In this document: piece by piece, positions 2,790 through 40,402 of the stretch | How the letters are laid out: every line of letters begins with the position of its first letter | Numbering within the stretch: position 1 is the first letter of the stretch | Notes under the pieces: generated by a model | What the model was told of the DNA's origin: nothing | Databases searched by the model: none | Seen by the model: the letters and a program-made list of their open reading frames with translations, nothing else | Translations under genes and position numbers: made by a program | Assembly: GCA_963733195.1 (NCBI GenBank) | Contig: CAVTCR010000073.1 | Coordinates: forward strand, 96,001 to 160,000 | DNA from: an uncultured delta proteobacterium | GTDB lineage: Bacteria; Desulfobacterota; Binatia; Bin18 | Reading direction: 5' to 3' | Length of the DNA stretch: 64,000 nucleotides

Positions 2790-3425
2790 GCCGCAAATAT
2801 AACGAACGGTTGGGAACCAAGCAGATTGAATTCAAAAGTCTGGTACCGCATTTGTTCCTGCCGACTCTCCTCAAACAGAAGCTTGGCTATCGTACGCATG
2901 CGTTTGTCTCTCTTCCGGTATTGAACCCTGCCACGCCGATCAACCGCGACTTCGATACTTTTACCCTCATGCCAAAACACAACGATATGGCAGCGATGAT
3001 CGATCGAATGACGTTCTCTCCGAATCAGCCTTCGTTCTACCTCCTCAACGTGGGAGAAACCCATTATCCATATGCCCTACCTGGTGAACCGGAGAGCGAG
3101 TGGCCGCGGATTCATGGCGTCCACGAGGGTCTTCAAACATCTCGACGATTTGGTGGTCGGTGGAAAACTTGTTGAAGATGAGGATGCGGTTCCGCAATTC
3201 TTCGATCAGGAAAAATTGGATCAGCTCCGTGAGCGTCAGCTTCAAGCCGTGCACTATCTCGATGACGTCTTCGTGTGGTTATTTGATAGTGTCCCACCGA
3301 ATACATATGTTACCATGACAGCTGATCACGGTGAGTTATTTGGTGAGGAAGGATACTTTGGGCACGGACCGATCAGCCACGAGAAAGTCTATGAAGTTCC
3401 ATTTGTCGAAAGGAAGATCCGCTAA
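2790..3425 (+). pseudogene. alkaline phosphatase/sulfatase-superfamily metalloenzyme, 5'-truncated, frameshift near 3125
   Basis: GETHYPY and TADHGELFGEEGYFGHG motifs split over ORFs 2810-3175 and 3072-3425; N-terminal metal-binding part absent. Confidence 0.75.
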
Positions 3426-3455
3426 CCGACTTGTCCCGCGGGCTCAAGGAGTACG

Positions 3456-4418
3456 GTGAAACGCTTCCAAGTCTTGCTGGGGATAGCGATTAGCCTAGGG
3501 TGTGGGTACTACGCCTTCCACGATGTGGAATGGGAAAAAGTCAAAGCAGCTTTTTCTCGTATCGATGCGATCGGCTTCCTCCCGGCACTTGTGGTGCTGA
3601 CGCTGCTTCTGCTGTTCCGTGCGTATCGGTGGCAATTGTTTGTGAGTCCGATTCAGCCAGTTCCCCTACGACATTTTTGGTCTGCAACGTTAATCGGCTT
3701 TATGGCGAACGATCTCTTGCCACTACGAGCGGGAGAGGTTGTTCGAGCGTATGCACTTTCCCATCTCGCCTCGGTCCGTATGAGTACTGCCGTGGCCACT
3801 ACTGTTCTTGAGCGTGTGTGGGATGCGGTGGCGGTCGCAATTGTACTTGCCGCGACGCTCTCAGGTTTTCCATTGCCAGGTTGGTTGCGTCATGCGAACT
3901 TCATCCTCTTGGGACTGTGTGCCGTTGTCCTGGTTGGTGGATGGTTCTTGGTTCAGCGAGGGGAAACTGCGTTTGCTCGATTTTCTCCGCGAATTGCGGG
4001 CCTGGCCCGACCTTTTATCAGCGGGTTCACCATGCTACGAAGTGTCCCATTAGTGTTGTGGGTTCTTTCGGTTTCTTTATTGATCTGGCTTACGTTAACC
4101 GGATTCTATTGGGTATTGTTACGAACCTGCGGTTTCAATCTTCCTCTTCAGGCAGCGTTTGTGGTGATGATTTTTACTGTGTTTGCCGCGGCGATTCCTG
4201 CGGCGCCAGGGTATTTGGGAACGTTTCAAGTCGCGATGGAACTTGCACTCCAATTCTATTCCATTCCGAAAGAAGAGGCCCTCGGCTTTTCGCTGGTCGC
4301 GCATGCGGTGCAATACTTCCCGGTTGTGATCGTCGGTTTAATTGAGCTCTTCCGAGTGCGACTACCACTGTGGCCTTCACAGTTGGGGAAGGTGGCGCCA
4401 GAGCACTCACATTCTTGA
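3456..4418 (+). CDS. lysylphosphatidylglycerol synthase TM / UPF0104 flippase-like membrane protein
   Basis: RAYRWQ, GFMANDLLPLRAGEVVRAY, ERVWD and PAAPGYLG motifs. Confidence 0.9.
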   Translation: MKRFQVLLGIAISLGCGYYAFHDVEWEKVKAAFSRIDAIGFLPALVVLTLLLLFRAYRWQLFVSPIQPVPLRHFWSATLIGFMANDLLPLRAGEVVRAYALSHLASVRMSTAVATTVLERVWDAVAVAIVLAATLSGFPLPGWLRHANFILLGLCAVVLVGGWFLVQRGETAFARFSPRIAGLARPFISGFTMLRSVPLVLWVLSVSLLIWLTLTGFYWVLLRTCGFNLPLQAAFVVMIFTVFAAAIPAAPGYLGTFQVAMELALQFYSIPKEEALGFSLVAHAVQYFPVVIVGLIELFRVRLPLWPSQLGKVAPEHSHS

Positions 4419-4466
4419 TATGGGTCTGTAGAAGTCTTTGCTTGCCGACAACTATGGAGCGAGGGC

Positions 4467-7400
4467 TCATGCTGAAAGAGAGATGAGGAGTGCTTGCGCT
4501 TCCCGAAAATCTGCCGTGTTTTGTCCTGCGCTGAATCGCTCATAAAGAGGCCTGAGTGTTTGTCGGGCAAGATCATCCCTTACCTTGTTGCTGCCACAAT
4601 CGACAGAGACGGAGCGTGGCTCGTAGCTCAAGAGCTTTTGACTGCTGCGTTCGCGCAATTTCGATGGATTTGAGAAAACACACTTCGGCTTCGCCTACGG
4701 GGTCAAGGGTCGGGGGTCGGGAATCGGTAATTTTAGACTTTGACCTCTTGAACTTTAAACCCTCTTCCTTTGACTCTGGACCTTGGACCTTGGACTCTGG
4801 GCGATCCTTAACTTCGGACTTCGGACTTCGGACCTCGGATAGCAGTAATACTTCCCCTTTTATCCGATACAGATTTGCCTCAGGAAGAAGCTGCCCTCGT
4901 GTTTGGGCAAGTGTCATCCCTTCCGTCAGTGTCCGGAGGCAATCCGCAGTTTGTCCTGCTACCAATTGCGCCTCGGCCAGGAGCGCGAGAAAATATGCTT
5001 GCCACAAGACTGCACCGGTCGCTTGGTAGGCAGCAACTCCTTGGTGGATCTGTTCGATTCCCTCACGCCCATCGGTCAGCATGGCACGGGCCCAGCCATG
5101 CTGAATAGTACTGCAGGCGAGACAATACGGAAAACCTTTTTCGACCGAGATCGCCATCCCTGCTGCTGCCATTCCTTGAGTGGCGAGGAAATCTCGGTTC
5201 ACCTGGTGGAGTGCTGCCACATGGCATCGTGCCAGCGCGAGACTGTAGTGATGCTCTTGCTCTTGGGCTAATGTCAATGCTTTGTCCGCATAGGCATGCG
5301 CTTGGGCAATATTGCCAAAATGAGAAAAGATGACAGACAGTGACGATAACACAATCACGCTGGGATTATCGACAAAATCCGTTGACGCAATGGGGGCCGG
5401 ATCGTTCAGGGCGAGACTGTGTTCGTAGTGCTGTTGTGCTGCAATTAAATTGCTTTGCCAAAAGAATGTGGAGCCCAGGGCATTGTGCGCAAGAGACAAA
5501 TGGAGTGGATCCTGCGCAGTGCTCGCCAAGTCTAACAACTGGTGGCCCAACGCTAATGCGGTCGGTAGTTCAGCTCGAACAATAGCGAATCCCCAGAGAC
5601 CGAGCAGAATCGGGAAGGGCTGGTAGACACTGCCAGCTTGCTGCCAAAGGGTGTGGGCGCGAGCGTATATCCGTTCGACTACGATCGACGCATAGCCTTC
5701 GGTCGCAGTCAAAGCGGTTCCTAAGGCAGTGCAAAGCGCGATTTCTTGTTGCACTCGTTCAGCAGAATCTGGAACTGCTTTGAGCAATTCCAGGCCGATC
5801 GTAAAATGCTCGATAGCTTCGCGGTAGGCGTAGCGTTGAAGGGCCGTCTCGGCTGCATTGCGGCGATACTGGATTGCGCGGTCGAAGTCACGCCCACGCT
5901 CGAAGTGTATGGCCAGTTTCACAGCAATCTGCTTGGCTTGGACTCCGTATGCCAGCTCTTTTTGCTGACCAATACGCGAGTGCAGATGCACACGTTTCCC
6001 GGCTGGGATACGTTGATAGAGGATATTTTGGTAGAGCGAATGAATAAACGCATATTGCTGCGCAACCGTCCCGTCGGGCCATTCACTAGCTCCGAGGGAC
6101 CGTAAAAAATGGAACCGGCGAGCTAACTTCGTATACTGCTCTTCGACAGTCGGAATTGGGAGCGCTATCGCCGCAGCCACAGCAGCCGCTGAGAACTCGA
6201 TACCGGCAACGCTCGCGACTTCAAGAATCTGCAGCTCGTCCGGAGAAAGACGGTCAAGCTGCATGTCAATCAATTGCTGTACATTCGTTGGGACTATGGT
6301 GTGAATGTCTGCAATCTTGGCGTGGAGTTGCCACTGTCCGTGTTCTTGGCGAAGGAACCCTTGGGCGATGAGATATTCAACGACATTGACCATGAAAAGA
6401 GGATTGCCGTCCGTCCGTTGATACAGCGCCTGTGCGAGCGCTGGAAGAAATGCACTTGAAGGAAAACGGGTCGTCACGTAGGCAAGGACTGCTTCCTCAT
6501 CCAAGAATCCCAATGGAATCGTGTGACATTGTCCATGGGTAGAGAGCTCACGTATCAAGCGTGGTAACGGATGGTCACTTTCTATGATGAAATCAGAGCG
6601 ATAGGTGCCTAGGAAGAGAAGGCGGGATTGATGGTGACGACGAGTGAGGAACGAAAGTAGGTCAAGGGTAGCCAAGTCGCTCCAATGCAAGTCTTCGATA
6701 ATGAGGATCAACGGCTTTTCCGCCGTCAGGCGAGTAAGAGCTTCGGCAAACTCACGCAACATACGGTCGGGCGTTGTGCCTTGGAGAGTCCGGCGGAGCC
6801 GCTTTCGATCGACGGAAGAAATGAGCGAGGGCATTTGCACAAGCCACATCGGGGCATGCTGCCGGAGAATGGTGGTGAGTTGCTCATTGCCTGGGAGACG
6901 GCAGAGGCGCTCTAGCGCCTCAAGAATAGGGAGATACGGTTCTCCAGTCCCATAGTGTTCGATGCATTGCCCTGACACGACCCAAAACCGTGCATCGGCA
7001 GACACACGTGCGAGAAACGTGTCAACGACCGCGGTCTTTCCTATCCCTGGTTCTCCGCTGAGAAATACGGTTTGCTGTTTCCCTTGGAGGAGAGAAAGTA
7101 ACAAGGAGTGAATTTGTGATAGAATGGTATCGCGTCCAACCACAGGCATTGCCGATTGGGGATTGGGGATTGGAGATCGGAGATTGGCAACTGAGAACTG
7201 ACTAGTTTCTTTCGCTTTTGGACGTTGGGCTTTGGACGTTGGGCTTTGAACGTTGGACTTTAGATTTGAGATTTTTACGGACTTCCGAGGGGTGAGGATT
7301 GCTGATTGGTTTCCCTCTCCTGATAACAGGTTACTCATGGCACCAATAAAGCGATAGCCTCGCCACGGAATCGTTTCAATGAAGCGTGGGACCTGTGACT

Positions 7401-18497: not shown

Positions 18498-18553
18498 TGC
18501 TCGCTTTATGCTTCGACCCCGCTGCTGTAGCTACGCTGCTCAGAAACAAACTC

Positions 18554-18961
18554 TCAGGCAGTGTCCGATTGGGGGAGGAGCGTGAAGCCCAAGTGGGTAG
18601 CGGTGCGTTTGAGCTGGCGAATCGCCCGTTGACGCAGGTGCTCATCATAGGTCTCCTGACTCTGGGGCTGATAGGGCGTGTGATGTTTGAGGACCTGGTA
18701 GAGGATCCGGGCCAACTTATGTGCGGTGGCGGTGATTGCCGACGCCGGGCCTTTACGTGCCCGCAGGCGGCGATAAGAACTGCCCAAGGCGGTTTGCGTG
18801 CGGCCCAGGGTTTGCGCGGCCAAGCGCAACACTTGTGCCGCCCGGCGATTGCCTTTGAGGGGCTTACTGCGCAAGACCTTTCCGCCTGAGATGTCGTTGT
18901 GGGGCGCCAAGCCCAGCCAGGAAGCGAAGTGCTTCTCGGTGGGCCACTTGCTCATATCCGT
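18554..18961 (-). pseudogene. IS110 transposase, C-terminal half
   Basis: DMSKWPTEKHFASWLGLAP..ISGGKVL..AITATAHKLARILY; cut by an IS6 inverted repeat at 18962. Confidence 0.9.
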
Positions 18962-19095
18962 GGATCTGTCGCAAGTTTTCGCCTCAAGAGCGTTCTGCTA
19001 TGCTCCTCAACTAACGGTGAGGGGAGGAGCGGTGGGATGATCGACTTCAAAGGAAGCCAGTTTGAGCGGGAGATCATCATGTGGGGCGTGAGATG
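18962..19095 (+). mobile_element. IS6-family left end with truncated transposase start
   Basis: IR GGATCTGTCGCAAGTT followed by MIDFKGSQFEREIIMWGVRW, similar to the IS6 at 33991. Confidence 0.85.
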
Positions 19096-31752: not shown

Positions 31753-32129
31753 TGACAACGTGTTCATGCCATTACCCCCGAGTTTGGCAGCAAAATTCTC
31801 CTTATTTTTTGCTACTTTCGGTGACGTATCTCTCCTGTATCCTCTGACTCGTCCTCTCCCCAATCGTCTCGTACGCCCCAAGAGGGACGTCATTTTGAGG
31901 AGGCTACGCAATGAGACGCTTCAACGAGTCCCGAGCGAGCCATCTATTTCTACTGGCGCGTGGTCAGCGTCACCAAGATAAAGATCGTGGCTGTCAGTGC
32001 CCAAAAGAACAAGTTGAAAAGATTCCCAGCCAATACGTCGCATCATTGAGGAGCATCCGTATGCACATGAGACCTCCCGGAAAAGGGGCGACTTCGTGCC
32101 CCACCGGGTGCTCCCTCGAAAATAGTGGC

Positions 32130-33390
32130 TTAACCAGGCAACGCGAGGGAGCGCTCTTCTAGGCTTTGGACGGTCACGTGTAGCCCAAGGCGTTCGAGTC
32201 GCTTCAGGAGCATCCGTTTCCGGTGGTCGGCGTTGAGGCGGTCCACATAATCTGCACCCAATTCTCGGTCCGGCTGTTTGGCTTTGAGCCTATGATACAC
32301 TATCCCCAAGATCGTATGGGCGACGGCGACAATCGCGCGCTTCTTCCCCTTACGGGCAGCGAGGCGACGGAACCGAGTCGCCAAGTAGGTGTCCTTGGTA
32401 TGCGACGCCGCCCAAGCAGCTTGACAGAGACTACGCCGCAACCACGCGTTCCCCTTACGAGAGGTCCCCGACAAGCGCTTGCCAGCGCTCTCGTGATTGC
32501 CGGGACACAGACCCGCCCAGCTGGCCAAGTGCTGGGCAGAAGGAAACTGCTCCTTATTCACTCCGATCTCGGCCACCAGATTGGTGGCGGCGACCTCCTC
32601 AATGCCGGGAATCGTCGTACACAGGGTGATAGCGTCCTGGTACTCTGTGACATGCGCTTAAATCTGTTCGTCCAGCCTTGCAATCTGGGATTCCAGGAAT
32701 GCCAATTGTTCCCACTGCGAGACGCAACCGCCAGCGATGGTGGTCTGTGAGGCGGCCGTGGAGCGCGAGCTGCAGGGCGGGAATCTTCTCCCGCAAACGG
32801 CCGCGGGCTAGGTCAGCGCGTGTGGCGACATCTTCTTCCCCGCCAGCAGTTGGGCGGGCATAGCGCGGCCCAGAAACCCCTAACCAGTCACTCGCCACCG
32901 AGGCCAGCTTGAGGTTAGCGTCCTCCAGGATCTTTTGCCTGCGCTTGGCGACCGCCGTGTGATCCTGACGCAGACTCGTTCGCAGCCGGGTGAGGTCCCG
33001 CAGCTCCCGTATCGGCGGTGGAGGCCAGAAGCTGCCCCGCAGCAACCCCTGCTGGAGTAAGTCCGCAATCCATTGATAGTCTTTCGGGGTCAGTTTTGCG
33101 GCCGGGGACCGCTTTGATGTGCTGAGCATTGATTAGCAACACCTCAAACTGTCCTTCCAGGATGTTCCAGACCGGCTGCCAATAAACCCCCGTGGATTCC
33201 ATTGCCACATGAGTGACCTGCAGGCCGTGCAACCAGTCTGTCAACTCCAGCAGGTCGCGGGTCATGGTCCCGAACCGACGAATCTCCTGCTGGGTGGTAC
33301 CGGCAGCGTCCCGCAGAAGAACACAGGTGGTGATCCTCTTCTTGTGCACGTCCAATCCACAACAGCGAGCATACCTGACGCACCTGCCTC
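32130..33390 (-). pseudogene. second IS110-family transposase, frameshifted
   Basis: GLDVHK, MESTGVYW, PGRKTD, AEIG..FPSAQHLASWAGLCPGNHESAGK, AIVAVAH. Confidence 0.9.
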
Positions 33391-33630
33391 CCTCCTTCCA
33401 CGCGTCAAAAGCCGAGCGTCTACTCTCAGTAGACTCTCCCTCGCGTGCTCGCCACTGATAGCGGCGGCGACAATTCGTTATGCCTGCGGGCGCTCCGGTT
33501 ACACTGGTGCGCGGGCTTCTACAGCGCCAGCACCCTTCAACCTCTCTGCTCTTGACGACGCACCCTCAAGAGAAGCACAGTCCGTCCTCATTTTCATCCT
33601 TCACTGTGAGCACTCAGCTCATCACCCACT

Positions 33631-33990
33631 GGTGCCATTCGCAAACCCAGGACGCGCGAGGGTAGGTGCGGAGGCACTGCTCAGGCAGCCAATACTGCCT
33701 CCCAGATCTGTGGAGTTCGTGCATGAGGGGAGCAGAGGACCGAGACATCAAATTGCCCTTTCTTCATCTGGTGAACGAGTTCGATGCCAGTGCTAGTAGT
33801 AGTCGTGTAATCAAAGCGCTTGCATCCCAGCATCGGTCGCACGCGCTGTTTCACTCGCCTGTGGTCCTGCGCAATCAGGGTGTTCACATAGCGGTTCGTC
33901 CGCCCACGGAGTGTTGTTGGTAAGAGGCCCTCTGCTTGGAGTTCGCCTACCGCGACATGCGAGGCGGTATAGCCGTCAAGGGCCATCTTC
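33631..33990 (-). pseudogene. IS6 transposase C-terminal remnant with degenerate IR
   Basis: DGYTASH..NTLIAQDHRRVKQRVRPMLG..GIELVHQMKKGQ. Confidence 0.8.
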
Positions 33991-34797
33991 GGCTTTGTCG
34001 CAACTTTGCAGGTGAGAGTTGATCCGCTATGCTTCTTCCCTGATTGGGCGGTGGAAGAGGAGCGGGATGAGCGATTTCAAGGGGAGCCCATTTGAGCGAG
34101 AGATCATTATGTGGGCCGTACGGTGGTATGTTGCGTATCCCATCTCTTATCGACAGCTCGAGGAGAGGATGGGCGAGCGAGGGGTGGCTGTGGATCATTC
34201 CACCCTTAATCGGTGGGGCATTAAATACGCTCCCGAGTTTGAGAAGCAGTTCCGTTGCCGGCAGCGCGCCGTGGGAAAGAGCTGGCGGCTCGACGAGACC
34301 TACGTGAAAATCAGAGGGAAATGGGCGTATTTGTATCGCGCCGTCGATAAAGACGGCCACCCCATTGATTTTTTGCTGACCCCCCAGCGCGATCGGGACG
34401 CTGCAGAGACCTTCTTACGCAAAGCTATTCGTAGTCAGGGACTCCCAGAGAACATCACGATCGACCAGAGTGGCAGTAACACGGCAGCAATCACGCACTA
34501 CAATAAGACGCAGAAGACCGCGCTTGTCATCTGCCACTCGAAATATCTCAATAACATCGTCGAGCAAGACCATCGGGCAGGGAAACGGCTGACGCGTCCC
34601 ATGTTGGGTTTCCAATCCTTTTGGGCGGCCCGCTGTACGGTCGCCGGCATAGGGGTGAGGCATGCGATTCGCAAAGGCCAGCTGATATGCACTGGGAATG
34701 CACCTCAAACGCCGGCGGAGCAATGCTATGCTTTGGCCGCATAAGTCACTAAAAGTAAATACTACGCTCGTCTCCATTTTAACTTTGCGACGGAATC
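33991..34797 (+). mobile_element. IS6-family insertion sequence, full length (transposase 34067-34744)
   Basis: IRs GGCTTTGTCGCAACTT / AACTTTGCGACGGAATC; WRLDETY, YLYRAVD and NNIVEQDHR DDE motifs. Confidence 0.92.
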
Positions 34798-35576
34798 TTG
34801 CATAGTGCTGCTCAATGTACGTGTCGTATTCATGCACTTGGGTGGTGTAGAAATCATACAAGGCCAGCGCCTGCTTGAGGGCAAAGACGTGTTCGGGCCG
34901 GTAGTGGCCGCTCAGCGCTTTGGCAATCTCGGCGGCACTCGCATGGCAGCGCTCATGGCGTAGCTGGGCCAGGGCCTGCGGATCACGCTCGCCCGCGACG
35001 ATCGCGCGAATCAGCCGCAGCCCGGTGAGACCCATAATGTCACTCACCACTTGCGTCAACTAGCACGTTCATCTGCTGCAACGCTTTCTGCATATGCTGG
35101 ATATGCGTGGCGCGATTCTCGAGCAACATGGTCCGTTGCCGCAAATAGGTCCGCAACACCCGCATCTCTTCCGCCGGACGAAAAGACGCCGTGAGCAACC
35201 CATAGCTATGCAACTGCTGCAACCACTGACAATCTTGTACCCCGCTCTTGCGCCCCGGCACGTGCTTCAGATGGCGCGCATTGACCACCTAGACCTCCAT
35301 CCCGCGTGCTTCCAACACTTCATAGAGCGGAATCCAATACACCCCTGTCGATTCCAGCGCCACGCTCGTCACCTGACACTGCCCCAACCAATCCGCCAAC
35401 GCATACAAGTCTGGCGTAAACGTGCCAAAGGCCCGCACCGGCTGCGCCGCGCGCTCGGCGGGCACGCTGACCCACATCTCTTCCGCTCCAATGTCCACCC
35501 CCGCCGCCGCACGATTCTGTACTCCCAGCTTCGGGGGTACTACCGCTTGGGGCGCCCGCCGCTTGGGTCTCTGCAT
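34798..35576 (-). pseudogene. IS110 transposase, N-terminal half (partner of 18554-18961)
   Basis: GVDIG, LESTGVYW, PGRKSGVQDCQWLQQLH, GERDP; internal stop and frameshift; cut by the IS6 IR. Confidence 0.9.
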
Positions 35577-35579
35577 CGC

Positions 35580-35828
35580 CTTGTTCCTCCTGTCCCTGGT
35601 CTTCAGCCCCAGACCTGGACACCTCAGTCCCACCTACGCTGCTCAGCGGGGTCGCGGCTTGGTGCCAGCCTCGCCTCCATTCTTTGCTCCATTAGGGTCC
35701 AGAACCAGTCTCAGCATCGGGCTCCTGCAGCACCATTCGTAACGCCGGTCTTAGCTTGTCGGGGCAGGTCGCTGAGGATAGCACTCTCCCGTTTCTGTCT
35801 CCATGCTGAGCGCCCCGCGCTCTGGGGA
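35580..35828 (-). ncRNA. candidate IS110 bridge-RNA region (non-coding left end)
   Basis: about 250-nt non-coding end containing matches to the rebuilt target and donor junctions. Confidence 0.5.
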
Positions 35829-35869
35829 CTCAGCATGAACGGGTGTTCTGGTTTAAGGTGAGGATTATT

Positions 35870-35913
35870 CCGCTTGTCCTGAGCGTCGTCGCGTAAGCGA
35901 CAAAGTCGAAGGG
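35870..35913 (-). repeat. REP-like element CTTCGAC-n-GCTCAGGACAAGCGG (inverted partner of the IS110-split copy)
   Basis: CCGCTTGTCCTGAGC-GTCGTCGCGTAAGCGACAAA-GTCGAAGGG. Confidence 0.7.
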
Positions 35914-35969
35914 CGGAGAGAAAGGAGACGTTGCACGCGGGCAAATTTTCCTCTCCTTCTTCCGTTCCT

Positions 35970-36722
35970 CTATCGAAACAAATCCGCCTCTGCTGGACGA
36001 ATTAGCTTCTTGCTGTCACCTTCAGCGGGAATAAACTGATAACCTCGGATGATAACTGCCGGGACTCCAGCTCCTTTTTCCATTAATAATCCTGCGGCGG
36101 CAGCAAGTTCATCAGCGACCGCGACAACCGTGTGATGCAGCTCGCGTCCCCGTAGGTCAGTGGCACCACGGAGATCGAGTAATGGCTCAAGTCCTGACAC
36201 ACCAAGCGCGAACTCGACCAGCCCATCACGCCATGGGCGACCAAATGTATCGGTGATGATAACACCCAGTGTGACTTTGCGCTGTTCTTGGAGGGCAAGC
36301 CGTAGCGCACGAGCTGATCCATCAATGTCCTTGGGAAGAAGAATAGCGATATCATCCCCAAGGCTGTTCGATTCATCCATCCCTGAGTTTGCGCACACCC
36401 AACCATGCTTGGTCTCGGTGATCACCACACCGTTCTTCATCCGCACGATACGGCTACTCTCACGCAGAACGACCTCTACTGCTCGTGGGTCTTTGTCCCA
36501 TTGCGTGGCGATTTGCTGTGCGAAGGGTGAAGGCTCGACAGTTTTGAGATCGACGATCGCCCCTTCTGCCTTTGACACGATCTTCTGACAGAGAATAACC
36601 ACATCGCCGTTTTGCAGGCCAATCTGTGCCTTATCGATAGCGCTTAGCAAAATCGCTGGGAGGTTGTCTCCTGGAGAAATTGCTGGGATACCGGGAATGG
36701 GAATGATTGAGATTGTATTCAT
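35970..36722 (-). CDS. cofE: coenzyme F420-0:L-glutamate ligase
   Basis: KIVSKAEG, VCANSGMDESN, TDTFGRPWR and DELAAAA motifs. Confidence 0.95.
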   Translation of the reverse strand: MNTISIIPIPGIPAISPGDNLPAILLSAIDKAQIGLQNGDVVILCQKIVSKAEGAIVDLKTVEPSPFAQQIATQWDKDPRAVEVVLRESSRIVRMKNGVVITETKHGWVCANSGMDESNSLGDDIAILLPKDIDGSARALRLALQEQRKVTLGVIITDTFGRPWRDGLVEFALGVSGLEPLLDLRGATDLRGRELHHTVVAVADELAAAAGLLMEKGAGVPAVIIRGYQFIPAEGDSKKLIRPAEADLFR

Positions 36723-36815
36723 AATATCCTAATGCATGATGCGTGAAACGTAATGCGTAAAGTGTGAAACGTAGAACGTAAACTCTGACGTTGTCGCGCG
36801 TTTACGTTCTACTCT

Positions 36816-37787
36816 TTATGTATTCTGAGGCAAGCAGCGTTTCTTGTGAGGATATTCTATAACGGCCTGTGCTAACGCAATCGATTTCTCCATATCGCTC
36901 ATAATCGTGTCAGTGACGATCACCGATATGCCGAGTTGCTCTATCTGTTGCCTCTGTTGCTGGTCTTGTGAATCAATGACAAAAGTATTGAGGAAGTCCC
37001 GATAAAGACCAGCGACGCCGACCGCTGAGACATCGATTCCGAGACCACTGAGTAAGCGGTCTGCGGGTCCTTTGATTGGCTTGCCGGCAACGAGCGGGCT
37101 GATCGCAACGATTGGTGCGGCAGTTTCTCGCAATGCCGATCGCACGCCGGGGAGTGCCAGAATCGGACCAATACTTACAATCGGATTGCTCGGCGGAAAA
37201 ATCACTAGATGTGCAGAACGAATCGCATCGCAGACGTCAGGAGCGGCAGTCGCGTCCTCGATGCCACGGAATTCGACATTATTCACAGTTCCCTCACTTC
37301 GGCGTTTAACAAAATATTCCTGAAACGGAAGTGCTCCAGCTTCGGTGTGAACAATAGTACGCACAGGATCGTTACTCATGGGAAGAATAGTGGCACGGAC
37401 GTTCCATGATTGTGCGATGGCCTGAGTGATTTCGCTCAGTGACTTCCCCTGGCGCAATTGTTGGGTACGGAAGAGGTGCGTGGCAAGATCGGTATCCCCC
37501 AAACCGAACCAGTTCTCAGGATAGTAGCGACCTAATGCGTTGAGGCAGCGAAAGGTTTCTTCTGGAAGTCCCCAGCCCTTTCCCGTATCCACTGAGCCGG
37601 CGAGCGTATAAGTGATCGTATCGAGATCAGGGGAAACTGAGAGGCCAAAAAATTCGTCATCATCCCCAGTATTAACGATGACACACAATCGCACTGGATC
37701 TATGACGCGTACAAGGCCGCGTAAAAAACGTGCGGCGCCAACTCCTCCAGCCAGAGCAGTGACGGTGAGATCTGTGGGTATCGTCAC
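36816..37787 (-). CDS. cofD: 2-phospho-L-lactate transferase
   Basis: LAGGVGAARF, VNTGDD, PDLDT, FQEYFV, PSNPIVSIGPIL and KGPA motifs. Confidence 0.95.
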   Translation of the reverse strand: MTIPTDLTVTALAGGVGAARFLRGLVRVIDPVRLCVIVNTGDDDEFFGLSVSPDLDTITYTLAGSVDTGKGWGLPEETFRCLNALGRYYPENWFGLGDTDLATHLFRTQQLRQGKSLSEITQAIAQSWNVRATILPMSNDPVRTIVHTEAGALPFQEYFVKRRSEGTVNNVEFRGIEDATAAPDVCDAIRSAHLVIFPPSNPIVSIGPILALPGVRSALRETAAPIVAISPLVAGKPIKGPADRLLSGLGIDVSAVGVAGLYRDFLNTFVIDSQDQQQRQQIEQLGISVIVTDTIMSDMEKSIALAQAVIEYPHKKRCLPQNT

Positions 37788-37855
37788 GCGCGCTCCTGGC
37801 CTGCCCTTTTATTATTTCCCCGTTTCGCCTGTGGGGAGAGTAATGTGTGGCGAGG

Positions 37856-39142
37856 TTAATGTGATACTTGCTGCTTCTCGCGTTCAAACGGATGGACGTA
37901 GCGAAATTGGTCGGAGGCAGCAAGTCGTTTGTATGAACCAAAACGTTCGTCTGGATTCTCAACCAGATCAAGCGGACTCAATTCCTCATCATCACCCGTA
38001 AAGATTTTTCGCAAGGTGTACGTTGTCGTGCGTTCCGCTGGGGTGCGCCCGAGGTCGCGTGTCAACCGGCGTAATTCCTTAGGTGGGACGAGTTGTCCAT
38101 ATTGTGCGCCAGCCGAGGTGGAGATGCTTTCATTAATGAGCGTTCCACCAAGGTCATTGGCACCTACAGTCAATAGATATTGCGCCATCTTAGGGCCTTC
38201 TTTGACCCACGAAGCCTGAATGTTGCGGAACGTAGGTCCCAACATCAGCCGAGCAACTGCATGCATCTTGACGACTTCCGCGCCAGTCGCACCTTGTCGG
38301 ACATTCTTGACGAGCTTGCGTTGGTACATCGGGGCTTCTTGATGAATCAACGAGAGTGGCACGAATTCCGTAAACCCACCGGTCTCTTTCTGAATATCAC
38401 GTAGCAAGTTCATGTGCTTGACCCAGTGCACCGGAGTCTCGACATGGCCATACATGATAGTCGAGGTCGTCGGGATTCCGAGACTGTGAGCAGATGTGAT
38501 GACCTCGATCCACTGTTGTACCGTCACACGGCCTGGGGCAATAATGTCACGAATATCCTGATCGAGAATTTCTGCCGAGGTTCCTGGCAGAGTGCCTAAG
38601 CCTGCTTCTTTCAACTCTTTGAGATACTGGATGACTGGAATGCCGGCACGAACAGAGCCGTAGTTCACCTCCTCCGGTGAAAACGCATGAACATGCAGAT
38701 CAGGCAATACTTTCTTCACCGCTCGGGTCAGATCGATGTACAAGCGACCATCCATCTTTGGCGGTAAGCCTGCTTGCATGCAGACCTCAGTGGCCCCCAT
38801 ATCAACGGCTTCTTGTGCGCGCCGAATAATTTCTTCCATGGGCAGGAAGTAGCCTTGTTCTTCGCGATACTCGCGGCTGAACGCGCAGAAGGTGCAGTGT
38901 TTGATGCAGACGTTCGTGAAGTTGATGTTGCGATTGACAACGTACGTGACGACTTCACCGACGTGGCGGCGACGCATTTCATCAGCGACGAGGCCTACAG
39001 CTTGAAGGTCAAGACCGTTGGTGTCACACAGCCGTAGACCTTCGCTCCACGAAATCTCCTCACCATCGAGAGCACGATTAAGGATCGTGCTCACTTCACG
39101 ATCAACATGTTCAAGGATAGCAGTCAGTCCGTTGGTTACCAC
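37856..39142 (-). CDS. cofH: FO synthase subunit CofH (radical SAM)
   Basis: VNRNINFTNVCIKHCTFCAF, PGTSAEIL, MYGHVE and GANDLGGTLINESIS motifs. Confidence 0.93.
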   Translation of the reverse strand: MVTNGLTAILEHVDREVSTILNRALDGEEISWSEGLRLCDTNGLDLQAVGLVADEMRRRHVGEVVTYVVNRNINFTNVCIKHCTFCAFSREYREEQGYFLPMEEIIRRAQEAVDMGATEVCMQAGLPPKMDGRLYIDLTRAVKKVLPDLHVHAFSPEEVNYGSVRAGIPVIQYLKELKEAGLGTLPGTSAEILDQDIRDIIAPGRVTVQQWIEVITSAHSLGIPTTSTIMYGHVETPVHWVKHMNLLRDIQKETGGFTEFVPLSLIHQEAPMYQRKLVKNVRQGATGAEVVKMHAVARLMLGPTFRNIQASWVKEGPKMAQYLLTVGANDLGGTLINESISTSAGAQYGQLVPPKELRRLTRDLGRTPAERTTTYTLRKIFTGDDEELSPLDLVENPDERFGSYKRLAASDQFRYVHPFEREKQQVSH

Positions 39143-39244
39143 GGTAAAACTCCTCAGGATTAAAACGTCAAACGTGATGCGTGAGAGTTGCTCACTCCCT
39201 AGGCTCGTTTTGCGCCTTAGTCATTACTCGTTACGTCTGTATTC

Positions 39245-40402
39245 TTAGCAAGCCGCCACTTGCTCTTGTAATTCTTGGGTGCGCGGGCGTAGTGCAGGTA
39301 AGAGAAATCCTGGACGTGTAATGTACTCTGGGTAAATCGCGAGCCGTTCCCGCAACGTGAATCCCTCCTCTTCACATGTCTGTGCGAGCGTTACCAGGTG
39401 AGGCCATGCCGCTTCGGGATTCACGTAATCTTTCGTTACTGGTGAAATACCGCCCCAGTCGTTAATTCCTGCACGCAGGATCAACTTATGATCATGTGGG
39501 CTGAGGTTGGGCGGCGCTTGCAGGTTCATCTTCCCACCCAAGAGCAGTCGTGCAACCGCGACTGTTTTCGCCATCTCCAGACTTTCGGGCTCTGGCGCAT
39601 CAGCCATGCGCGTCTTCGGCTTGGCTCGAAAGTTCTGCACGATGACTTCCTGAATATGGCCGTACTCCCGGTGAATGTCCCGGATGGCGATAAGGCTATC
39701 GACACACTCTTCGCGCGTCTCGCCAATACCGATAAGGATGCCGGTTGTAAATGGAATCTCCAGCTCACCGGCTTCACGTAACATGCGCACACGTACGACA
39801 GGATCTTTGTCAGGTGCAGAGAAGTGGGCCATACCACGTTGGCGTAGGCGCGGGCTGATATTTTCCAGCATCAGACCAAGACTCACGTTCACTTCCTTGA
39901 GCCACTTCATTTCGTTGTAGCTCATCACCCCAGCGTTGGTATGTGGCAACAGTCCCTGCGTGAGTGCGATTTCGCATGCACGATAGATATACTCGGTGGT
40001 GTTCTGATGGCCAAATCCGGCGAGTGTGGCACGATAACCGCTGTACGCGAGCTCTGGTTTATCCCCTAAACACATCAACGCTTCTTTGCAGCCCTGGGCT
40101 CTGCCGCGCTTAACCCAGTCAAGAATCTCGTCTGGTGTCATAGTCCACGCATCAGGATCACGTGGATCTTTGCGGAACGTGCAATACGAACACCGGTCAC
40201 GGCATAAATTGGTAACCGGGAGGAACACCTTACGCGAATATGTAACTGTCCTCCCCTTATGGCGATCACGAAGCTCCCCTGCAGCTGCCAACATGGCAGG
40301 GACATCTTCGTCGGCGCAGCTGATGAGCGTATAACCTTCCTCAGCGGAAAGCGACTTGTCCTGAAGGGCTTTGTTGAGAATCACTAAAAAGTGAGGTTGC
40401 AC
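39245..40402 (-). CDS. cofG: FO synthase subunit CofG (radical SAM)
   Basis: TYSRKVFLPVTNLCRDRCSYCTF, LPHTNAG, QAPPNL and DWGGISPVT motifs. Confidence 0.95.
   Translation of the reverse strand: MQPHFLVILNKALQDKSLSAEEGYTLISCADEDVPAMLAAAGELRDRHKGRTVTYSRKVFLPVTNLCRDRCSYCTFRKDPRDPDAWTMTPDEILDWVKRGRAQGCKEALMCLGDKPELAYSGYRATLAGFGHQNTTEYIYRACEIALTQGLLPHTNAGVMSYNEMKWLKEVNVSLGLMLENISPRLRQRGMAHFSAPDKDPVVRVRMLREAGELEIPFTTGILIGIGETREECVDSLIAIRDIHREYGHIQEVIVQNFRAKPKTRMADAPEPESLEMAKTVAVARLLLGGKMNLQAPPNLSPHDHKLILRAGINDWGGISPVTKDYVNPEAAWPHLVTLAQTCEEEGFTLRERLAIYPEYITRPGFLLPALRPRTQELQEQVAAC

Follow-up and report, generated by a model that had tools for sequence, protein, structure and literature searches.

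A probable bridge RNA gene with covarying guides at the non-coding left end of a decayed IS110-family element

The window analyzed here is a stretch of 64,000 nucleotides (nt) from an uncultured delta proteobacterium (Desulfobacterota, Binatia; assembly GCA_963733195.1, contig CAVTCR010000073.1, positions 96,001 to 160,000), which carries on its minus strand a dead, split insertion sequence (IS) of the IS110 family. The non-coding left end of this element (35828-35577), preceding the transposase start codon (ATG at 35576, reading leftwards), is most probably a bridge RNA gene, a reading to which we assign a probability of roughly 0.85. The fold of the RNA is real and supported by covariation, and three guides covary with their DNA partners across relatives. 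The locus represents a large, uncharacterised branch of a known kind of bridge RNA, and is itself a relic. In an earlier reading made from the letters of the window without any comparison (the sequence-only reading), the left end had been proposed to hold a candidate bridge RNA of the IS110 family; the covarying fold and guides bear this out and place the RNA on the strand of the transposase.

Judged by its sequence, the element belongs to a widespread subfamily with DEDD transposases of about 450 amino acids (aa). Relatives at approximately 50% aa identity are present in 14 of the 401 genomes of the phylum, and among species-representative genomes 598 of 600 candidate stretches were confirmed as encoding relatives, so that at least 598 exist. 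Eighty relatives from many phyla, with 47-60% aa identity, were fetched. Nine truncated or duplicate loci were dropped before the start, leaving 91 loci, of which 76 possessed both anchors; 74 were retained after refinement and 67 of these were non-identical. For a finer set, 6 of 7 matches or more were required at the left as well as the right end, which left 53 loci (47 non-identical); these were reduced to 46 by dropping one locus whose right flank was the left end of another copy. In locus L048, a Mycoavidus record, the right flank equals the start of its own left end (CCTCTTAAGGGG), so that either a second copy follows head to tail or the contig records the circle junction.

The left ends of the relatives were aligned on a common scaffold, and RNAalifold was run with the 47 non-identical sequences. 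The output comprised the basal stem P1, the distal hairpin Ha (UGGUGC..GCCCG) and a second, homologous hairpin Hb (UGGUGAC..GAUCCCG), to which we added the stem P2, enclosing the second module. The RNA would be built from a closing helix, P0, and two homologous modules, in each of which an internal loop lies between a basal stem and a distal hairpin UGGUG..CCCG. Across the 24 pairs of the family alignment (A2), 91.7% of the cells hold standard pairs, compared with 77.7% in shuffled alignments (none of 500 as high) and 33-50% with slid partners, and changes on both sides are observed in 17 of these pairs. P2 is poorly aligned in A2 (72.6% paired); an alignment-free test of this stem gave 6.38 of 7 against 5.46 (z = 10.1, 0/500). 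P0 connects the 5' end with the segment that follows P2 immediately. The mean length of its longest helix is 7.32 against 5.71 (z = 9.0, 0/300), and in many relatives it is formed by helices of 8-13 base pairs (bp) of unrelated sequence. Two U.G pairs are invariant (47/47 and 46/47), which fixes the strand as that of the transposase. A structured RNA is therefore located in the left non-coding end on the strand of the recombinase, as expected of a bridge RNA of the IS621 type.

Two segments of this scaffold are variable, and both follow the CCCG that closes a hairpin, so that each occupies the 3' side of the respective loop. The first equals the left flank plus the core. Its last 7 nt are found perfectly within a 130-nt upstream interval in 42 of the 67 unselected relatives, with a mean of 6.39 against 4.97 after permutation (z = 16.9, none of 500 permutations reaching the observed mean). 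This is the segment that contains CTCAGCAT in the window (AUGCUGAG in the RNA), which the sequence-only reading had recognized correctly as a match to the target flank. The second segment equals the right end plus the core, with 7 of 7 nt found downstream of the stop codon in 57 of the 67 relatives (z = 16.3, 0/500), and represents the reading of the left donor half by the donor loop. On the 5' side of the first loop, a right-target guide appears as an antidiagonal in the column matrix, columns 32, 31 and 30 being complementary to core-1 and to the right-target positions RT+1 and RT+2 (z = 3.8, 4.4, and 4.1, respectively), and a scan of the 46 relatives gave a mean of 4.28 against 3.66 of 6 (z = 6.6, 0/300). 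Across the family, the target loop thus pairs with both the left and the right target halves, core included, and the covariation of homologous left-end segments with insertion sites that had been suggested as a test of the bridge RNA was found for the left flank (z = 16.9) as well as the right (z = 6.6). Furthermore, the nucleotides adjoining the 3'-side guides match the non-cognate DNA in the manner of a handshake. Columns 70 and 71, the two nt after the first guide, equal nt 1-2 of the left end (RD+1 and RD+2; z = 3.1 and 5.3), and RT+1 is matched by column 177, the nt that follows the second guide (z = 3.9). From RT+2 onward, no covariation was detected in the family at the extension of the second guide.

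The guides of the window copy are listed in Table 1. The right-target guide UUACG pairs with the top-strand right flank CGTAG (18535-18531; positions 1-5 of CGTAGC) with one U.G wobble, and the intact paralog described below displays a clean 6-nt match in register. The left-donor guide CUGAGCAG, which reads the right end and core AG (18543-18536), is continued by the extension CGUAG. The loop-2 extension is approximately 4 nt longer in this clade than in the other members of the family. The sequences of its three copies, CGTAG, CATAG, and CGTAA, agree with the flank consensus CG.AG of the genome. With the extension, the loop-2 stretch is colinear with the junction formed in the product between right end and flank, similar to the handshake guides of IS621, and with moderate confidence we take the CGUAG to be a lengthened handshake segment.

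It may instead be that the second segment guides the right end only and that the 5-nt flank match is a coincidence, a by-product of pairing with UUACG or repeat-derived sequence without a working handshake, a possibility to be taken seriously, short of being probable. Such an explanation would account for the limitation of family-wide covariation to RT+1, and CGUAG is complementary to UUACG, so that pairing within the RNA may occur. At any one site a 5/5 match is expected by chance about once in 1000, although the present match was noticed post hoc. Two further points weigh against a lengthened handshake: the extensions of the two paralogs match their own flanks at only 1/5 and 3/5 positions, and an extension of 5 nt is known from one clade with three related copies. 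On the other hand, all three clade members keep C[GA]TA[GA], in agreement with the CG.AG flank consensus, and the extension sits exactly at the handshake-like column of the family. Moreover, extra handshake pairs raise efficiency in IS621, according to the reports on that system (PMC11208158, PMC13626964).

The boundaries of the element decide between a donor guide and a target guide at the second segment. The genome of origin contains 44 copies of the right-end motif TT[TC]GTTTCTGAG, 39 of them followed by CAG. A palindromic repeat starting GTCAT[TG]CTGAG is present in 89 copies, 13 of which are empty sites where CAT[TG]CTGAG is followed directly by CG.AGCGAAG. In addition, a contig of 151 nt that stems from an RNA library of soil (X3 record 5), in which the left flank of the window copy aligns from 35829 outward, joins this flank at 35829 directly to ...GACGCTACG, and its other side, ...GCTTTATGCTTCGACTTCGCTGACGCTACG, is a near-copy of the right flank of the window copy (18535 downward). 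Since 39 of the 44 right ends carry CAG, and the 13 empty sites as well as the soil contig are devoid of it, the target before insertion is ATGCTGAG followed by CGTAGC, without CAG. The core is AG, and the element spans from the T at 35828 to ...CTGAGCAG ending at 18536. A right end at CTGAG was rejected on the grounds of the empty sites and the 39/44 count. The natural target is the palindromic repeat family of the genome itself. The family has the form GTCATTCTGAG CG.AGCGAAGAATCTCTC ... GAGAGACCCTTCG .. CACTCAGGGTGAC. A second variant, CATGCTGAG CGTAGC ... GTCGAAGCA, is the target of the window copy and of miniature elements on contigs C77 and C82.

The sequence-only reading had pointed to five strings, all of which are present on the plus strand where it had placed them: CTACGCTGCTCAGC (35634-35647), CTCAGCAT (35710-35717), AGTCCC (35626-35631), GTTTCTG (35791-35797), and CATGCTGAG (35802-35810). 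The first of these, a 14-mer, had been described as identical to the rebuilt target junction and interpreted as a contiguous guide spanning the core of the target. With up to one mismatch it has two sites in the window, the exact one and one of 13/14 at 18531-18544, compared with an expectation of 0.02 from 100 shuffles, none of which contained two matches. The second site is the present right junction, that is, right end plus flank, and not the target. The 14-mer itself is composed of the last G of the conserved CCCG, the 8-nt guide for right end and core, and 5 nt equal to the right flank. The earlier interpretation arose since the element had been ended at ...GTTTCTG and CAG assigned to the flank, which made a donor guide appear to be a target guide. 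If the element did end there, the 14-mer would match the left flank GCTG plus AGCAGCGTAG at 14/14. A single contiguous target guide is nonetheless highly improbable, and already contradicted. The element ends at CTGAGCAG, with CAG in 39/44 right ends and no CAG at the junction of the 13 empty sites and the one contig; the homologous segment in relatives tracks the right end and not the left flank (e.g., L050 and L072); and an invariant CCCG supplies the G that is the fourteenth base. Insertion into empty sites bearing GCTGAGCAGCGTAG would be required to restore it. A contiguous match had also been said to depart from the layout of IS621. A difference does exist, namely the reversed 5'/3' order of the guides, and it is not the contiguous guide that had been envisaged.

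Of the remaining strings, GTTTCTG forms one arm, the left one, of a subterminal inverted repeat, and CATGCTGAG falls within the terminal hairpin region. As they are located upstream of the conserved fold, neither is a guide loop. AGTCCC, also noted as a match to the ends of the element, found no comparative support (region after the second guide, z = 1.1). Read in the RNA as GGGACU (35631-35626), it was tried as a right-donor guide and discarded, with z = 1.1 in the family and 4/6 and 3/6 matches in the paralogs. The subterminal repeat is itself a property of the family. Its longest exact inverted repeat has a mean of 7.77 against 5.66 after permutation (z = 13.1, 0/300; 47 relatives), with lengths of 5-11 bp. 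The left arm, lying upstream of the RNA fold, begins 31-39 nt from the left terminus in 47/47 relatives, and the right arm lies approximately 8 nt from the right end, abutting the site of the right-end guide.

Several observations weigh against the bridge RNA reading or some part of it. In the window copy all helices are intact except P0, which retains 6/9 pairs in comparison with 9/9 in both paralogs. Single-sequence folds of the window and of the paralog left ends were no better than shuffles (z = 0.44 and 0.08), and an Rfam scan of 32000-37000 at E up to 1 returned two chance-level hits, below gathering scores. The 47-sequence matrix was preselected for matches at both ends, so that only the tests on 67 relatives are free of this selection, and the z-scores are overstated because the relatives are not independent. 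In the window copy, UUACG is located one nt off the family register without a core pair, and the two handshake-like nt after AUGCUGAG are AC, which match the right donor half, starting TC, at 1/2 positions. For the right donor half no guide emerged from five scans (between the loops and after the second guide, with and without wobble; z from -1.1 to 1.1), and the column matrix displayed no diagonal, only a core-pairing column (z = 3.2-3.7).

Regarding expression, a scan of 35540-35900 for consensus promoters and terminators found none, which also counts against the bridge RNA gene. A weak TATCCT is located 10-15 nt upstream of P0, where several relatives carry TATAAT-like hexamers, and this may be a -10 box. 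In the right and left ends, which would meet in the circular form, no -35/-10 pair was seen by eye, the -10-like box lying inside the left end. Five public runs contain small shares (0.05-0.28), four of which were examined as assembled contigs. Contigs of one RNA library (X1) cover 35672-35882, and one 210-nt contig of a run of unknown kind (X5) covers 35561-35770; a lack of coverage elsewhere in the runs carries no information. None of these runs provides evidence of transcription, as contigs cannot show start, strand or expression, and the RNA-library contig that spans the junction may be DNA or read-through; both facts weaken the case. The RNA would presumably be transcribed, and be bound by the transposase. 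RNAs from the corresponding non-coding regions of IS110 and IS1111 elements co-purify with their transposases and are required, according to two studies (PMC11187229, PMC11208160). That the fold is instead a 5' leader controlling translation of the transposase or stability of its mRNA, with the flank matches as side effects of site-specific insertion, is hardly credible: the fold does stop approximately 15 nt before the ribosome-binding site GGAGGA (35590-35585), but a leader needs no segments that change with left flank, right flank, and right end in dozens of relatives whose targets differ, nor does it agree with the RNAs just mentioned.

Table 1. Coordinates of the features discussed, numbered along the window.
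Feature	Position	Strand	Basis
Conserved bridge RNA core, 161 nt	35606..35766	-	RNAalifold, pair counts, helix tests
P0	35766-35758 with 35614-35606	-	z 9.0
P1	35750-35747 with 35706-35703	-	RNAalifold
Hairpin Ha	35735-35718	-	RNAalifold
P2	35702-35697 with 35620-35615	-	z 10.1
Hairpin Hb	35679-35647	-	RNAalifold
Left-target guide AUGCUGAG (35717-35710), 3' side of loop 1, equal to flank + core 8/8	35708..35717	-	family test z 16.9
Right-target guide UUACG, 5' side of loop 1	35738..35742	-	family z 6.6; window register by eye
Left-donor guide CUGAGCAG, 3' side of loop 2, equal to right end + core AG	35639..35646	-	family z 16.3
Extension CGUAG, equal to right flank CGTAG 5/5	35634..35638	-	sequence
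GGGACU, complementary to core + first 4 nt of left end	35626..35631	-	no comparative support
Weak -10-like TATCCT	35775..35780	-	by eye from alignment
Left arm CAGAAAC of subterminal inverted repeat; partner GTTTCTG at 18547-18541	35791..35797	-	47 relatives
Left-end terminus (first nt T at 35828), hairpin GAGCGC/GCGCTC, then CTCAGCATG (35810-35802) complementary to flank	35798..35828	-	sequence
Left target half + core, ATGCTG + AG (flank, not element)	35829..35836	-	paralog similarity begins ~35838; soil contig
Right target half CGTAGCTAC, flank	18527..18535	-	sequence, empty sites, soil contig
Transposase gene, 5' part, dead	34801..35576	-	sequence, paralog and profile comparison
IS110 3' part	18536..18962	-	nt identity to paralog 3' parts 73% and 84.5%
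IS6/IS240-type element interrupting the IS110	33990..34800	+	PF13610 at 128 bits; left limit approximate

The genome of origin (6.9 megabases in 87 contigs) contains two more full copies, a broken one on contig C41 (83% nt identity) and one on C79 (74% nt identity) with an intact 454-aa gene, the product of which carries both domains of the IS110 family, PF01548 and PF02371, at 83.3 and 39.8 bits. The first 50 nt or so of the left end of the window copy are common to the paralogs and three miniature elements. The latter, recognized as three genome matches of approximately 53 nt (e.g., L005 on contig C86 and L006 on contig C4; matched window part 35787-35840), retain nothing of the element but these ~50 nt and, from its right end, the final ~20 nt. 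Miniature elements of this kind are approximately 150-180 nt long, consist of ends only and occupy the same target repeat as the full element. A strict left-end pattern is located upstream of 11 of the 44 right-end motifs, at 62-184 nt in eight cases and at 1.65-1.70 kilobases (kb) in three, the three being C41, C79, and a 1.7-kb element on C24. The C24 element (approximately 3308-5011, partly covered by L004) has the same left and right ends as the window IS110; the DNA match to its interior is limited to 54 nt with no PF01548 hit inside, and it may carry other cargo. Many other right-end motifs share a different internal sequence, ATCCAGGGGGCAGTGGGCGGAGCAT, before the end. In a plasmid search for the closest named IS, only the label 'IS110 family transposase' was returned, and a search of the genome for the Pfam families, accompanied by control genomes, gave no usable IS621 locus from the controls.

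The window copy itself has neither intact catalytic residues nor an open reading frame. An in-frame TAG is present at 35288-35286, and the motif GRKSGVQDCQW replaces GRKSDVQDCQW of the intact paralog, the residue concerned (D110) being invariant in an alignment with eight relatives (A1). The N-terminal part is detected as two PF01548 pieces of 28.2 and 23.3 bits, both below the 29-bit cut-off. At about 34800 the gene is interrupted by the IS6/IS240-type element, which has its own transposase at 34019-34744 and a terminal repeat AACTTTGCGACGGAATC ending at ~34797. The 3' part of the IS110 is found approximately 16 kb away from the 5' part and consists of the transposase C-terminus (18962-18554) with its stop at ~18556-18554, the arm GTTTCTG (18547-18541), and the right end with core CTGAGCAG (18543-18536). 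About 190 bp of the gene are absent between the two halves. The non-coding lengths are approximately 250 nt upstream of the transposase and 18 nt after the stop. Both halves adjoin terminal repeats of the IS6 type (18963-18980 and 34781-34797), with GGATCTGTCGCAAGTT at 18963 and AACTTTGCGACGGAATC at the other border. The bordering elements are two, not alike in nucleotides, and a blast search of the window found no second nucleotide-level copy of the IS6-type element. This arrangement suggests that the ~16 kb between the halves were imported or rearranged by IS6-type elements. Adjoining the IS6-type element are a second, unrelated IS110-family transposase fragment with the motif MESTGVYW and stops (32800-33430, minus strand) and a C-terminal fragment of another IS6/IS240 transposase (33681-33986, minus strand; PF13610, 41 bits), so that several insertion sequences are nested together here. 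On the minus strand at 35970-40402, downstream of the insertion site, are four genes that we take to resemble those of coenzyme F420 biosynthesis (gamma-glutamyl ligase, 2-phospho-L-lactate transferase, and two FO synthase subunits).

With regard to mechanism, the geometry of RNA-DNA pairing would be that of IS621 with the DNA flipped left to right, and from this flipped geometry the strand cut first would be opposite to that of IS621 in the element sense. It is tentatively proposed, at somewhat less than even odds, that the ~450-aa IS110 subfamily possesses a third, undescribed bridge RNA layout, characterized by an upstream RNA gene, the IS1111 guide order, covarying asymmetric subterminal repeats, a closing helix, and no base-paired right-donor guide. 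In this proposal the synapse would mirror that of IS621 with the bottom strand cut first in the element sense, the layout would stand between the two known groups as an intermediate in evolution, the handshake would have grown to 5 nt in this clade, and the RNA would serve approximately 40 miniature elements in trans. Literature searches for such a layout or for miniature elements brought up no account of an RNA that lies upstream and has the IS1111-type order; Extended Data Fig. 10c of PMC11208160 and Supplementary Fig. 2 of PMC11187229 may show one.

Bridge recombinases are being engineered as programmable tools for DNA insertion, and the rules known so far derive from IS621 and a few relatives. 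The present family shows that guide order is not tied to the position of the RNA upstream or downstream of the transposase, which bears on the proposed history of the RNA moving from one of the element's ends to the other. It would also offer a natural case of a lengthened handshake, the feature found to control efficiency in laboratory work on IS621, and its elements of ~150-180 nt are natural minimal donors that define the needs of the enzyme in cis. For annotation, it should be noted that a boundary misplaced by three bases can make a donor guide look like a target guide.

As in IS621 (Durrant 2024, PMC11208160; Hiraizumi 2024, PMC11208158; Hiraizumi 2026, PMC13626964), the RNA is encoded in a long left end and shares its strand with a DEDD/Tnp recombinase gene, upstream of which it lies; it has two internal loops, each reading both strands of its DNA partner; the non-cognate partner is matched by the last one or two nt, at the 3' end, of the 3'-side guides; and the target is a palindromic repeat. 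The recombinase, in contrast, is a remote relative (E = 5e-5, 25.7 bits; 454 aa here and 328 aa in IS621), and in both loops the guides come in the opposite order. In the present family, pairing with the top strand (right half) falls to the 5' side and pairing with the bottom strand (left half) to the 3' side, whereas IS621 has its top-strand (right-half) guides and handshake nt on the 3' side. Further differences from IS621 are the core (AG or AA instead of CT), the presence of the closing helix P0 and of a long subterminal inverted repeat, the lack of a detected right-donor guide and of an evident junction-spanning promoter, and an extension of 5 nt in this clade instead of 2 nt. ISEc21, of the IS110 type (Siddiquee 2024, PMC11187229), resembles the present element in that its upstream non-coding region gives a transposase-bound RNA matching both target strands, the binding being known for ISEc21. 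It differs in having the IS621 guide order (bottom-strand match first), a transposase of 358 aa, and no subterminal repeats reported in that source. The same source assigns 395-455 aa to the subgroup with IS110 itself and 330-350 aa to IS1111 transposases, shorter than the 454 aa found here. The seekRNAs of the IS1111 type (ISEc11, ISPa11, and ISKpn4; PMC11187229) reverse the ISEc21 order, with the complement of the top strand located 5' of the bottom-strand match, as in the present family; subterminal inverted repeats flank the recombination site in both, and some IS1111 members also target palindromic repeats. Unlike the present element, IS1111 elements carry the non-coding RNA region downstream of the transposase, and their repeats measure 11-13 bp with terminal extensions of 7 and 3 bp, compared with repeats of 5-11 bp and extensions of ~8 bp on the right and 31-39 bp on the left here. 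Finally, ISPpu9 and ISPpu10 of Pseudomonas putida (PMC12288879; bioRxiv 10.64898/2026.03.19.712850) are likewise IS110-family elements residing in repetitive extragenic palindromes, in other hosts and with other transposase lineages.

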